Notes: generated by a model not told the origin, from the sequence alone. Positions 11,149 through 18,164 are shown, counted from the stretch's first letter. The stretch is DNA of 64,000 bases from an uncultured Bacilli bacterium (GCA_944331915.1 CALVIR010000002.1:7149-71148), one strand, 5' to 3'. Made by a program: numbers and translations.

Positions 11149-12213
11149 TTAACCATCTAAGCCATAAGTATCTAATTGTGGTTTTTTTAAATATTCTTTA
11201 AAATTAATTTTATCATAAATATCAAGCTGCAACTTATAACATTTAGCATGTGAACTATGAGCAAGCCAAGAATTCCATTCTAAAATAGTTTTATGTAAAT
11301 CTAGCAAATTGTTTTCATATAGAATATTCCATTTCTTAATCTTTCTTTTTATCTTTTTAATACTTCTTTTCCTAAGTAATCTATAACTCTCATACACTCT
11401 AAAGCCACAAAAATCAAGTCCCATCTTATTAGGATGATATCCACTCTTATGATTTAACTGTAAATGCAAATTTTCTTCTAAATAGACATCTATATCAGCA
11501 ATAACCTTTCTAGCTTCTTCCTTAGTCTCTACAAACATCACAAAATCATCCATATATCTAACATAGTATTTAATTTTTAATTTATCTTTAACAAAATGAT
11601 CTAATTCATTTAAATATATATTAGCAAAAAACTGTGATGTATAATTACCAATTGGTAAACCTAATACATCATTATCACCATATATAAATTCATATGTTAA
11701 TTTCAACAATTCTTCATCTTTAATAAACTTACCTAAAAGTTTAAACAAAATATCTTTATCTATATTATAAAAAAATCCCTTTATATCACATTTAACTATA
11801 TAATAAGTGTTATACTTATTTTTCATCTTCTGCATATATAATTGAACCTTATCAACCGCTTTATGAGTTCCTCTCCCATCAATACAAGCATAAGTATCAT
11901 TAATAAATCTAGGCAATATATAAGGTTTAATAAACTCATGTATATACCACTGATGAACAATTCTATCTACATATGGTAATGATCTAATCATTCTCTCTTT
12001 TGGTTCATAAATCTTAAACTCTCGATATTTCCCCATTTTATAAGTTCCATTTTTTAGTTTATTGTATAAATTAACTATATTACTCTCAAGATCAATATCA
12101 AATTTTAACACCTCTAAAGAATATCTTTTTGTCTTACTAGCCCTCTCATGAGCTTCAATTAATGACTCAATAGTTAATTTATCATAAAAAGCATTTCTTA
12201 TCGTATGAGGCAT
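11149..12213 (-). CDS. DGR-type reverse transcriptase
   Basis: 354 aa. RT motifs include YVRYMDDFVMF (YxDD) and the DGR-diagnostic LPIGNYTSQFFAN (I/LGxxxSQ) motif. Overlaps avd by 16 nt. Confidence 0.9.
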   Translation of the reverse strand: MPHTIRNAFYDKLTIESLIEAHERASKTKRYSLEVLKFDIDLESNIVNLYNKLKNGTYKMGKYREFKIYEPKERMIRSLPYVDRIVHQWYIHEFIKPYILPRFINDTYACIDGRGTHKAVDKVQLYMQKMKNKYNTYYIVKCDIKGFFYNIDKDILFKLLGKFIKDEELLKLTYEFIYGDNDVLGLPIGNYTSQFFANIYLNELDHFVKDKLKIKYYVRYMDDFVMFVETKEEARKVIADIDVYLEENLHLQLNHKSGYHPNKMGLDFCGFRVYESYRLLRKRSIKKIKRKIKKWNILYENNLLDLHKTILEWNSWLAHSSHAKCYKLQLDIYDKINFKEYLKKPQLDTYGLDG

Positions 12214-12554
12214 GATCTAATCCAACCTCCATTAAGATTAGAAATATTTGTAATTTTCTTACTCCATGCTGTATAATTCTTAGAATTTATATATTTCTTT
12301 TTATGTGAAACTCTTATTAACACTTTAACAATTTTTAAATTTGCATCTAATTCATTCAAATAACTAAGTCTTTTCTTCTTATCAAACTCTTTTTGGGCAT
12401 AAATAATATCTTTCAAGCCAGCATAAGTAACATTTTTTATATCTTGCGCTAAAGAAAAACGCTCTGACTTTGGATATTTAAGCAAAATAGATAAAGTATA
12501 GTAAACGAGCTCTACATATTGTTTATAAATCATTAAACCTTCTAAATCATCCAT
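12198..12554 (-). CDS. avd: Accessory variability determinant (Avd; four-helix-bundle, 23S rRNA IVS protein family)
   Basis: 118-aa basic helical protein immediately upstream of, and overlapping, the DGR RT. Typical Avd length and position. Confidence 0.8.
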   Translation of the reverse strand: MDDLEGLMIYKQYVELVYYTLSILLKYPKSERFSLAQDIKNVTYAGLKDIIYAQKEFDKKKRLSYLNELDANLKIVKVLIRVSHKKKYINSKNYTAWSKKITNISNLNGGWIRSCLIR

Positions 12555-12572
12555 AGCTCCTCCAAATTTTAT

Positions 12573-12858
12573 CTATTCTCCTAGTATTCATTTCTTACCA
12601 ACCAAAAGAATAGTACTTCATTATTTTATTTACTAATACTGCTCGTAAAATGGAAAAAACCTCTAAGATATTTATTTTTTATTACTAAAGTAATAACTTA
12701 AATAATTTTTATATCATAGTCCTCATCACGAGGCGGAACGAACCATTGTTGTTACTACCACCTGTGTTGTTATTGTTGAAATAAAATACACCAGCAATAC
12801 TACCACCAGAATTATAGTTACCGCCGCGCAAAAACCAAAAAGTAATTAAGTTTCTCCC
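12573..12858 (-). repeat. TR-like cassette A (core 12722-12830, 26 codons; 3' module 12573-12721)
   Basis: Shares both GC-rich anchors with TR and VR: CGCGGCGG at the 5' end and TCGTTCCGCCTCGTGATGAG at the 3' end. 9 of 26 core codons are AAC/AAT. No ORF upstream. Promoter-like flank and a GGGAGAAAC leader. Ends 19 nt before the avd start. Confidence 0.8.
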
Positions 12859-12901
12859 ATCTATAACTTAGCATAAATTTACAAAAGTTACAACAAAAAA
12901 A

Positions 12902-15884: not shown

Positions 15885-17749
15885 GTCGCGCTCATCACGA
15901 GGCGGAACGAACCGTAAGTGCTAGCACCACCGAGAGAGCTAGCAGCGCTGAAGTAGAACACACCCGCATAAGTGGCAGAGTAATAGCCACCGCCGCGCAC
16001 AAACCATGGATACTCAGCACTTATCATGTTCTGTGCATCACTATACCATCCTGCGGTCTCACTTAAACCATGACTTAAACACTCACTTCCATTACATGCT
16101 TCTTTTATATTATCACTTGTATATTTATCATAATATTTTGCTTCAGGCATTTCTGTAAATCCGGAACTACCTATCGTATCATTGTAATTACCCATTACAT
16201 ATTCCCATGCTCCTCCACTCATATCATATACTCCATATATCGTTCCTGTGGTACTTGCTCCTACTCCTCTTCCTATCAATCCATTTTCATCTCTTACATT
16301 ATTATCATACTTATATTGACATCCATAATCTGTATTTGCATTAGAAGGTGATCCATAACTACATCCTGTTATATATTGATCACTCTTGTTCTGATATACC
16401 TCTTTATTAGCTCCTTTGAAATTCTCATTTCCTAATTTTCCATATCGACTTTGTGATAAATATGCTACAACTGCCCACTCACTATTCTTCATCGCATGAG
16501 AATTCATACTTTCACTAAAACCATATCTATTTCCTGTTGCACTTACCTTCGTCGCTACAGTATGTATATTACTTACATTTATATTTCTCCAACTCGTTAC
16601 ATTTGGTTTTATCATCGGATCTAAGCTTGTGTTATTGCTTCCTCCATAACTAGCAGAAGGATCACTACTACTTGTTTCAAACTTTCCTACCCATATTCCA
16701 CTTAACTCTTCTCCATCATAAGTAAACGCATCTGGAGTCCGATAGTTCTTTGGCGTTTCTGTTGCTATATATTTTGCATTTCCTGTATCTTTTTCATCAA
16801 CACCTATAAACTTAATATCTATCTCTCCTGGCCTTGATAATGTAGGAGTTGTATCTAAATATATTCCTTTTTTACCATAATAACTGGAACCTCCATTTTC
16901 ACTACCAATTGTATAACTATATCTTGGAATCCATACCCACATTGTTTCTATATCATCCATCTCAATTGTTGTTCCAACTGCTGCACTTTGGTATTCTGCT
17001 AACTTATCACTTTTTACTGTTACAGCATTAGCCCATATTCCCATATCATAATTATACCAATTATTATCTATATCTGTTTTTACCCAGTTATATCCATCAT
17101 GTTTTACTGCTATCATATTACTATCCATTACTGGAGCATTTACCTTATCTGTTCCTTGCTCAAAATCTGCATCTGCTACTTGTTGTGACGCAAAAACTTT
17201 TAGTTGACCTAAAAATACTTTACCCATAGATTCCGTAGTAGCATTTATATTAAGCCAAACTCTAAGCTCACACTCTATCTCTTCATCAGCATTAATTATT
17301 CCATAACTCATTATATATGAATCAGATAATGTTCCTGTAAATGTTCTATCTCCCATTTTTAATTCATATCTTACATCTCTACCATCTAAAAGTTCACATG
17401 CTCCACCATCAGTGGTTTGACAATTACTTAAAGCTTCTTCATCATCTACTAATGATAACGTAAAATATAAAGGAATAGTACTATTATTTTTTAATGAAAA
17501 TGTATATGGTTCTCCTTGTCTACCTTCATCATCATAAGTTGGAATTGTATTTACCAACTGTATCCCTTCATTAGTTTCATTTAAAACAAGTTCGATATCT
17601 CCTACTACTATCTGTACATCTTTTTCACCGTAAATGATTGTATTTAACCAAGCATAAGAAATACCTACTACTACAATTAAAAGTATTACACTAAGAATAA
17701 TTATAACTTTCTTTTTATTATTCTTAATTGTATCCATAATTTTTGTCAT
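15875..17749 (-). CDS. DGR target protein: N-terminal signal-anchor plus TasA/camelysin-like domain, with a C-terminal FGE-sulfatase/C-type-lectin-fold variable domain
   Basis: 624 aa. TM/SipW-like signal VIIILSVILLIVVVGISYAWL. The N-domain is homologous to the 56.5-59.3 kb paralogs. The C-terminus has GGAWEYVMGNY and WFVRGGGYY..SFRLVM, typical of FGE-type DGR targets. The VR forms the last ~40 codons. Confidence 0.85.
   Translation of the reverse strand: MTKIMDTIKNNKKKVIIILSVILLIVVVGISYAWLNTIIYGEKDVQIVVGDIELVLNETNEGIQLVNTIPTYDDEGRQGEPYTFSLKNNSTIPLYFTLSLVDDEEALSNCQTTDGGACELLDGRDVRYELKMGDRTFTGTLSDSYIMSYGIINADEEIECELRVWLNINATTESMGKVFLGQLKVFASQQVADADFEQGTDKVNAPVMDSNMIAVKHDGYNWVKTDIDNNWYNYDMGIWANAVTVKSDKLAEYQSAAVGTTIEMDDIETMWVWIPRYSYTIGSENGGSSYYGKKGIYLDTTPTLSRPGEIDIKFIGVDEKDTGNAKYIATETPKNYRTPDAFTYDGEELSGIWVGKFETSSSDPSASYGGSNNTSLDPMIKPNVTSWRNINVSNIHTVATKVSATGNRYGFSESMNSHAMKNSEWAVVAYLSQSRYGKLGNENFKGANKEVYQNKSDQYITGCSYGSPSNANTDYGCQYKYDNNVRDENGLIGRGVGASTTGTIYGVYDMSGGAWEYVMGNYNDTIGSSGFTEMPEAKYYDKYTSDNIKEACNGSECLSHGLSETAGWYSDAQNMISAEYPWFVRGGGYYSATYAGVFYFSAASSLGGASTYGSFRLVMSATSP
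15891..15999 (-). repeat. DGR variable repeat (VR)
   Basis: 109 nt, aligned without gaps to 18028-18136. There are 15 mismatches, and every one falls where the TR has A on the coding strand. 12 codons are changed. The VR core has zero Asn codons against 10 in the TR. Confidence 0.9.
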
Positions 17750-17793
17750 TTATTTTTATCTACCTCCCTATATTACCAAATTATTCTAATCTC

Positions 17794-17835
17794 ATTATAT
17801 CATTTTTAACAAAATATGGAAGAAAAATGTCAAAA
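17794..17835 (-). promoter_or_regulatory. Possible promoter of the target gene
   Basis: On the minus strand: extended -10 TGATATAAT about 45 nt upstream of the ATG, with TTGACA further upstream at non-optimal spacing. Confidence 0.35.
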
Positions 17836-17877
17836 TTTAATATTTATTAATTAACAGAATGTTATTTTCATATAATG

Positions 17878-18164
17878 CTATTCTTCTAGTATTCGTCTTC
17901 TACTAACTAGAAGAATAGTACTTCATTAGTTTTATTTACTAATACTGCTCGTAAAAAGGAAAAAACCTCTAAGATAAATATTTTTTATTACTATCGTAAT
18001 AACTTAAATAATTTTTATATCATAGTCCTCATCACGAGGCGGAACGAATTGTTAGTGTTAGCACCACCGAGATTGTTAGTAGCGTTGAAGTTGAACACAC
18101 CCGCATTAGTGGTATTGTTATAGCCACCGCCGCGCAAAAACTAAAGGCACAATAAGCTTTTCCC
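17878..18164 (-). repeat. Cassette G: cognate TR plus conserved 3' module, directly upstream of the target gene
   Basis: Same organisation as cassettes A-D: GGGAAAAGC leader, TR, ~150-nt module, and a perfect 13-bp hairpin at 17878-17918. Confidence 0.85.
18028..18136 (-). repeat. DGR template repeat (TR) cognate to the VR at 15891-15999
   Basis: Non-coding copy of the VR. 10 of 26 core codons are AAC/AAT. All 15 differences from the VR lie at its adenines. Confidence 0.9.

Follow-up and report, generated by a model that had tools for sequence, protein, structure and literature searches.

The window analyzed here, a 64,000-nucleotide (nt) stretch of DNA (CALVIR010000002.1:7149-71148 of GCA_944331915.1), belongs to Candidatus Onthousia faecavium (its reverse transcriptase, RT, is 99% identical in contig L007) and carries a diversity-generating retroelement (DGR). 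One RT gene overlaps one avd accessory gene, and upstream of them lie a target gene with a variable region (VR) at its 3′ end and six minus-strand template repeat (TR) units (hereinafter designated U1 to U5 and TR7). U1 and U2 are directly upstream of avd, U5 is located past the terminator of the target gene, and TR7 is upstream of the target gene (Table 1). This arrangement departs from the canonical single-template DGR architecture, and we consider it probable that the locus is a multi-template DGR, in which interchangeable cassettes are served by a single Avd-RT pair encoded on the chromosome of this species.

The RT is DGR-like in sequence. Its best match among solved structures is the 8ub7 group, a 328-amino acid (aa) reverse transcriptase that we take to be the Bordetella bRT (E = 4e-48; group II intron RTs reach 1e-19). 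Among the 139 phage records returned by a tblastn search are those of Bordetella, Bacteroides, Faecalibacterium and Vibrio VP585 phages, and the relatives of the RT in the phage collection are DGR-carrying phages. The NCBIfam group II model gives 119 bits, far under its 300-bit cut-off, in a collection that holds no DGR-RT model. Avd scores 79.8 bits against NCBIfam DivGenRetAVD (cut-off 80) and has no match among PDB sequences at E ≤ 0.01. An avd gene overlapping an RT with IGNYTSQ and YMDD motifs, as claimed in a preliminary description of the window, is borne out by the Pfam matches and by the overlap itself (Table 1).

Realignment of TR7 (18028-18136, minus strand) with the VR (15891-15999, minus strand) reproduces the reported 109-nt gapless match, in which the TR has an adenine at all 15 mismatch positions. 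With 27 A among the 109 nt of the TR, the chance of this outcome is ~0.248^15 = 8e-10. The in-frame comparison likewise agrees with the earlier count of 12 altered codons, and the 10 Asn codons of TR7 are reduced to none in the VR, all being replaced by Tyr, Ser, Ala or Gly. Homology between TR7 and the VR reaches ~8 nt further 5′ (GGTTTnn ahead of GCGCGGCGG), and an adenine-tolerant scan of both strands of the entire window found this VR as the only partner of TR7. The VR ends in a 21-nt segment (TTCGTTCCGCCTCGTGATGAG) that is common to TRs and VR and resembles the initiation of mutagenic homing (IMH) element; it is followed by a DNA hairpin, TAGTCC-GTAA-GGACTA, whose loop holds the stop codon of the target. 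The hairpin has a compensatory variant (TAGCCC/GGGCTA) in the related loci L013 and L010 and is also present at the VR of a remote paralog (L002). A hairpin downstream of the VR is needed for homing in the DGR of Bordetella phage BPP-1 (PMC3240598). Since the testable defining features of DGRs are found here, we assign the system to the DGR family; a DGR-like RT, Avd and adenine-only differences uphold the earlier view that the DGR looks functional and that its adenine signature is clean.

The canonical architecture of one TR per RT is not what the window holds. A repeat finder detected several repeat families with five to eight copies each at ~330-nt spacing, which resolve into six TR units; in each of them a conserved leader (…GGGAnAAnCTT…GGTTTnn) precedes a TR-like segment, and a conserved non-coding tail of ~165 nt follows it. 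The TR segments start with GCGCGGCGGT and end with TTCGTTCCGCCTCGTGATGAG, exactly like the VR; the 5′ end common to all TRs and the VR is GGTTTnnGCGCGGCGGT, and the GC-rich 3′ end is the IMH equivalent. Five units are A-rich and in frame, and their AAC/AAT-rich cores encode different scaffolds. The sixth, U5, has a T-rich body that contains only 7 A in a 92-nt core, is out of frame, includes an in-frame stop and carries a VR-like 3′ flank (TGCGACTA); we refer to it as the null cassette. U2 has a decayed 3′ anchor in the window and in L003 (TTCCATCTTGTGATAAG, three substitutions; 99 nt). In L001, L005, L006 and L007 it is 105 nt long with a nearly intact anchor, and U2 of the window strain is likely a decaying cassette. 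A promoter-like TTAACC-18-TATAAT precedes TR7 at 18188-18217, and an extended –10-like TGTGATAAT lies upstream of U3. From conserved TGnTAnnnT...GGGA elements we infer that each module may have its own promoter and be transcribed separately. No VR partner of U1-U4 exists anywhere in the window. The possibility that U1-U4 are pseudo-VRs was rejected, since these units are rich in A, hardly vary between strains and are followed by TR-type tails. The preliminary description had recognized a single cognate TR at about 5.8 kb from the RT, and none between the overlapping avd and RT genes; this picture is incomplete, with six units present and two of them directly upstream of avd, and TR7 is only the current donor of a VR that other strains template from U4 or U1.

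Table 1 Features of the DGR locus in the window (coordinates from the first letter of the window)
Feature	Coordinates	Strand	Description	Tail match to covariance model R1
DGR reverse transcriptase, 354 aa	11149..12213	-	Pfam RVT_1 9.7e-18; IGNYTSQ, YMDD	
avd accessory gene, 118 aa	12198..12554	-	Pfam bAvd 1.6e-21; 16-nt overlap with RT	
TR unit U1	12572..12880	-	leader/promoter-like ~12838-12880; TR 12722-12837 (108-nt core, 28 A); tail 12572-12721, ending just upstream of avd start	12551-12746, 162.9 bits
TR unit U2	12902..13200	-	TR 13052-13158 (99-nt core); tail 12902-13051	12880-13076, 146.4 bits
AAA_14/DUF4143 ATPase open reading frame	13233..14561	-	Pfam AAA_14 2.8e-27, DUF4143 9.1e-23; inside array between U2 and U3	
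TR unit U3	14634..14944	-	TR 14784-14902 (111-nt core); tail 14634-14783	14613-14808, 158.4 bits
TR unit U4	14963..15264	-	TR 15113-15222 (102-nt core, 28 A); tail 14963-15112	14941-15137, 167.2 bits
Null unit U5	15277..15593	-	body 15452-15551; diverged tail 15289-15451; terminator 15277-15308 (from fold)	15289-15476, 84.6 bits
Target intrinsic terminator	15749..15794	-	10-bp GC stem and U run; RNA fold -25.8 kcal/mol, z -3.3	
DNA hairpin TAGTCC-GTAA-GGACTA	15869..15884	-	6-bp stem, 4-nt loop, just 3′ of VR; DNA fold -8.4 kcal/mol, z -2.7	
Target gene, 624 aa	15875..17749	-	N-terminal hydrophobic anchor; putative divergent FGE-sulfatase-like C-terminal domain	
VR	15891..16007	-	last ~36 variable-region codons of target; currently TR7-type	
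TR unit TR7 (current donor)	17878..18217	-	leader; TR 18028-18144 (108-nt core); tail 17878-18027	17856-18052, 170.2 bits

The donor of the VR differs between strains. Five syntenic contigs of the species from other samples (L001 and L003-L006) were compared with the window, and each VR was scored against every TR on its own contig; the shared order is uvrA…amidoligase, TR7, target, U5, U4, U3, ATPase, U2, U1, avd, RT and C39 peptidase. The VR fits TR7 in the window (15 adenine changes) and in L001 (16 changes), U4 in L003 (17 changes) and L006 (12 changes), and U1 in L005 (12 changes), in every case with 0 non-adenine changes and 0 gaps. With any TR other than the donor, non-adenine mismatches number at least 6 and gap columns at least 3. 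The VR of L003 recurs unchanged in L004, a contig from a second sample that stops before U4. Given these adenine-only fits to TR7, U4 and U1, it appears that adenine mutagenesis has written one VR from at least three templates of the array. U3 and U4 are identical in 6/6 contigs of the species and TR7 in 5/6, and the VR alleles number five; the cross-strain check proposed in the preliminary description came out as that description predicted, VR variation being limited to TR-adenine positions and the TRs nearly invariant. Over the first 575 aa, the target proteins of L003 and of the window are 100% identical, and proteins in the 90% cluster of the window target that match these residues carry U4-fitting, not TR7-fitting, VRs. 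Among close orthologs the VR lengths differ.

Two explanations that leave TR7 as the sole template of the local VR can be weighed against these data. That each TR is dedicated to its own paralogous target elsewhere is very improbable. A remote paralog in L002 (85% identical, lacking any RT or TR within 10 kb) does have a U4-type VR with the same VR ends, and the O. faecavium metagenome-assembled genome holds at least two further paralogs (P0005 and P0135), but the local VR itself is U4-type in L003, L004 and L006 and U1-type in L005 with synteny unchanged, the remote paralog cluster contains both U4-type (P0002) and U1-type (P0143/P0147) VRs, and in a sister species the products of all seven cassettes are found in one gene. 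An ordinary single-template DGR, with inert duplicated or decayed extra units and with differing VRs arising as repeat-caused assembly artefacts, is barely credible. Repeats do fragment assemblies, many homolog contigs are 2-5 kb long and U2 is partly decayed in the window, but the shared ends of 17-23 nt fall, in our judgment, under typical assembler k-mers. Moreover, the U4-type VR occurs in three independent samples, one of them a probable long-read assembly as suggested by the contig name of L006 (s3861.ctg004363l); a null-type VR is present in the circular metaFlye genome L016; and the extra units are conserved, A-rich and in frame, with covarying tails, across 15 species.

Two further observations concern the paralogs. 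The remote VR of L002 (11752-11853) has a CGC>TGC change in its conserved 3′ segment (SFCLVM), and the VR of P0135 (HIS37988.1) is identical on up to 13 contigs; such a target may no longer be rewritable. One scan of JGI metagenomes by VR-flank pattern returned a single locus.

RT relatives of 70-81% identity in 13 GTDB species (L008-L021; L007, from the species of the window, was left out of this set) all have unit arrays upstream of avd-RT, with 3-12 units by regular expression and up to 26 by the tail covariance model. At loci with both VR and array, the local VR matches array position #1, #2, #3 or #6 with adenine-only differences, and 10 normal TR-VR pairs across related loci contain 138 changes at adenine sites versus 1 at a non-adenine site. 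A codon-reachability test assigned 53 of 165 homologs to an available TR. In one sister species, the P0007 cluster contains VRs of cassettes #1 (null) to #7 in proteins that are 97-100% identical outside the VR, with the products of #2, #6 and #7 on 100% identical backgrounds.

The largest array, in L015 (CALVQK010000020.1, 546-9700), consists of 26 tandem TR-tail modules at ~355-nt spacing, all with different TR bodies; several of them end in the variant SFRLVK in place of SFRLVM. Across L008-L021, Avd is 91-96% identical to that of the window, which is unusually strong conservation for a small accessory protein, with 77-81% for the RT and 66-78% for the target.

The tails of the units form a conserved structured RNA. 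An alignment of 52 tails from 15 species supports a structure in which the outer helix, P1, encloses a hairpin, P2, and the 3′ hairpin, P4, is long, with 91% of cells paired and compensatory changes in 16 pairs. Double-change cells number 94; shuffling the columns gives 34±5 and sliding the partners at most 22. Single-sequence folding of the TR7 tail recovers P2 and P4. In the 64 kb, the derived covariance model R1 detects five tails at 146-170 bits and the U5 tail at 85 bits, with no other match. A scan of nine related loci at Rfam gathering thresholds found no family, RT-14 included. Rfam RT-14 (RF02921; Weinberg 2017, PMC5737381) nevertheless aligns over its full length below threshold (U4, 35 bits, E 0.04; U1, 33.6 bits; gathering threshold 48.1) and has its elements in the order found in the tails: first an outer helix with a hairpin inside it, next a U-rich linker, then a small hairpin, and lastly a long hairpin on the 3′ side with the internal loop UUAGUAG...GAAUAC. 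RT-1 to RT-19 are orphan motifs beside RT genes; RT-14 has no assigned function, and RT-10 corresponds to the BPP-1 TR-RT spacer (PMC5737381). By this analogy, the tails most likely constitute the RNA that binds and primes for Avd-RT. A covarying tail is found on each unit, and therefore each cassette keeps its own copy of the likely binding and priming RNA.

In 10 sister-species loci that span the position right after the target (L008-L011, L015-L018, L020 and L021), the unit found there first is of the U5 type; in L013 and L014 the first unit is A-rich with a null-type tail instead. The null cassette also occupies the VR. Null copies are present in the VR of L010 (VR at 4542), L016 (7592; a circular metaFlye long-read genome), L017 (72) and L020 (6847), and also in that of L025 (8540) and L026, and ~10 of the first 120 homolog representatives have truncated or frame-shifted C-termini of the null type. 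In the species of L018, normal VRs and a null VR occur in one and the same gene on 100% identical backgrounds, so the null unit is a genuine donor. Its composition (T>G>C>>A) resembles that of an adenine-exhausted template.

The null copies bear on whether cassettes are exchanged by reverse transcription. In the alternative, RT-independent short-homology recombination or gene conversion swaps the cassettes and the DGR only mutagenizes the VR from the matching TR. Null-type VRs are identical or nearly identical to the null TR (0/11, 0/11, 0/13 and 1/8 adenines changed), the flanks common to the null unit and the VR are longer (17 nt on the 5′ side and ~34 nt on the 3′ side), the unit lies 0.45-1.1 kb away in direct orientation, and the target homolog P0099 ends in a TR-type flank, as a VR/TR crossover predicts. 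On the other hand, the flanks shared by normal cassettes measure only ~17 and 21-23 nt, every cassette carries a leader and a full covarying RT-type tail that would be needless for a pure DNA donor, and switched VRs already bear 12-17 adenine-only changes relative to their new donor. Even in null VRs, both changes (2/51 adenines, compared with 27-59% in normal cassettes) are A>G at TR adenines. The 5′ junction is also variable, as in retrohoming: a 2-nt marker just 5′ of GCGCGG, which differs among TRs, is co-converted in the VRs of L001 and L002 and left unconverted in those of the window, L003, L005 and L006, a pattern that fits a complementary DNA (cDNA) with a fixed 3′ and a variable 5′ junction. 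On balance, we regard the recombinational alternative as unlikely and infer that switching is RT-mediated. For the null cassette alone, transfer could be high-fidelity and RT-mediated, recombinational or selection-filtered; adenine context was rejected as the cause of its low mutation load, since context-specific rates predict 3-5.7 changes per event, compared with the 0-1 found. Bordetella bRT misincorporates at 31-51% of adenines (PMC12875486).

In the multi-template reading, a single Avd-RT pair would serve an array of alternative template modules, each a small transcription unit of its own in which a promoter-like element is followed by a GGGA leader, the TR and, at the end, ~165 nt of structured tail. 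The tail would bind and prime for Avd-RT, and the resulting cDNA would replace the VR at a site marked by the common 3′ segment and the hairpin. Because these ends are common to all modules, any module could overwrite the same VR, and there would therefore be two levels of diversity, namely the choice of cassette, which sets scaffold and loop length, and adenine mutagenesis within the cassette. Copying in of the null cassette would yield a truncated protein and possibly a reversible off state, and we hypothesize that this cassette acts as an off switch. More tentatively, the array might be a programmable template library, in which cassette choice, possibly set by promoters, precedes adenine refinement and the null cassette provides a reversible OFF state, a form of DGR-driven phase variation; such an elaboration is possible, and we do not favor it. 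The two-tier scheme would loosely resemble gene-segment choice followed by hypermutation.

Several results weigh against the multi-template reading. Switching is known solely from its products in different samples, and all contigs are metagenome assemblies. Among ~30 alleles of the species, no U2- or U3-derived VR was found, and the anchor of U2 has decayed in the window. The near-unmutated null copies described above fit ordinary mutagenic retrohoming poorly and leave room for a recombinational route. Matches to sigma-70 promoters are not above chance in this AT-rich region (33 versus 34.8 expected; 29% GC). Finally, the fold of the target is not confirmed, AlphaFold2 models having a predicted local distance difference test score (pLDDT) of 45 for the full protein and 35 for the C-terminal 289 aa.

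Homologs of the target number 3857, from gut Bacilli. The preliminary description had assigned it an FGE/C-type-lectin fold. The FGE part receives some backing from a weak, sub-threshold match to Pfam FGE-sulfatase (18 bits versus 23.3; E 0.0025-0.011), which 26 of 62 homologs also show at E ≤ 0.05; sequence and profile searches against PDB gave nothing meaningful for the fold. Two homologs have unusual C-termini. P0099 (614 aa) ends in ...SFRLVMRTMM*, with a TR-type 3′ flank (GAGAACTATGATGTAA) replacing the VR flank and hairpin, an arrangement that suggests either a VR/TR crossover (deletion) or cDNA read-through. P0131, of the same species (615 aa), has a U4-type VR in a shifted frame (…PMLVCSTSVITILVVPSAVRSAS*); in this allele a 1-nt indel, not the null cassette, truncates the protein.

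The ATPase reading frame within the array is present in all contigs of the species and absent from sister-species arrays, and is probably a passenger insertion. Directly downstream of the RT (9836-11128, minus strand), a Peptidase_C39_2/C70-like gene with an Asn-rich N-terminal half occurs in this species only. Both genes were considered as DGR accessories and rejected because they are missing from the sister loci. The next reading frame (9058-9807, minus strand) is weakly thymidylate-synthase-like and has relatives of 38-40% identity after the RT in L012, L015, L016 and L018. On the other side (18274-20583, plus strand), an Amidoligase_2 protein of 609 aa is paired with a GGACT/AIG2-like gamma-glutamyl cyclotransferase; the pair is divergent in transcription from the TR7 unit, and its synteny is kept within the species.

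The locus shares with the BPP-1 DGR an Avd-RT pair, adenine-specific transfer from TR to VR, a VR at the C-terminus of a binding protein, an IMH-like, GC-rich 3′ segment with a 4-nt-loop hairpin after it (PMC3240598) and a structured RNA 3′ of the TR (PMC5737381). BPP-1 has one TR between avd and brt (avd-TR-spacer-brt, target mtd). Here, six modules (up to 26 in relatives) with their own tails lie upstream of overlapping avd and RT genes, several modules write the same VR, and the locus is chromosomal with no phage context. Surveys have described DGRs with more than one TR per RT (Yan 2019, PMC6642488; PMC11661182), including those of Zeta crAss-like phages (PMC12386605), and paired TRs one-to-one with VRs or dropped VRs hit by several TRs as redundancy. 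The present system likewise has more than one TR for one RT, and differs from these in that a single VR is alternately templated by several TRs, the modules are in tandem and one template is null. Targets away from the RT locus, as with L002 here, are also found in Treponema denticola-type DGRs, which diversify surface-exposed proteins with FGE/CLec-type VRs (Wu 2018, PMC5758913; PMC4891356); these have one TR and many VRs, the reverse of the many TRs and one or few VRs found here, and multiple TRs are not treated by Wu et al. (PMC5758913). Searches of the open-access literature turned up only counts of multi-TR DGRs and one-to-one TR-VR pairs, and nothing on TR-tail modules arrayed in tandem, on one VR with alternative templates, on a null template or on an Onthousia DGR.

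Survey pipelines that drop overlapping VRs hit by several TRs can overlook multi-template biology of this kind. For one class of orphan RNA motifs associated with RTs, the RT-14-like tails would supply a function, and the arrangement provides a natural blueprint for multiplexed directed evolution with DGRs, in which one Avd-RT pair and one target are shared by several TR-tail modules. It also raises the concrete question of what sets the choice of template RNA by the Avd-RT complex.

Silent-cassette variation from Neisseria pilS to pilE and at Borrelia vls proceeds by recombination and faithful copying. The array described here resembles it in that non-expressed partial cassettes replace the variable part of one surface-protein gene, non-functional outcomes included, and differs in that the cassettes would be RNA templates with RT-recognition tails and the products are adenine-mutagenized: normal-cassette products show adenine-specific changes, and null-cassette products are nearly faithful copies. 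In the accepted picture of DGRs, one invariant template varies its target or targets at adenine-encoded positions only, with scaffold and loop length fixed. At the window locus and in ~15 related species, 3-26 interchangeable templates per VR would open a larger sequence space that includes changes of length and scaffold, and the array may add an off state.

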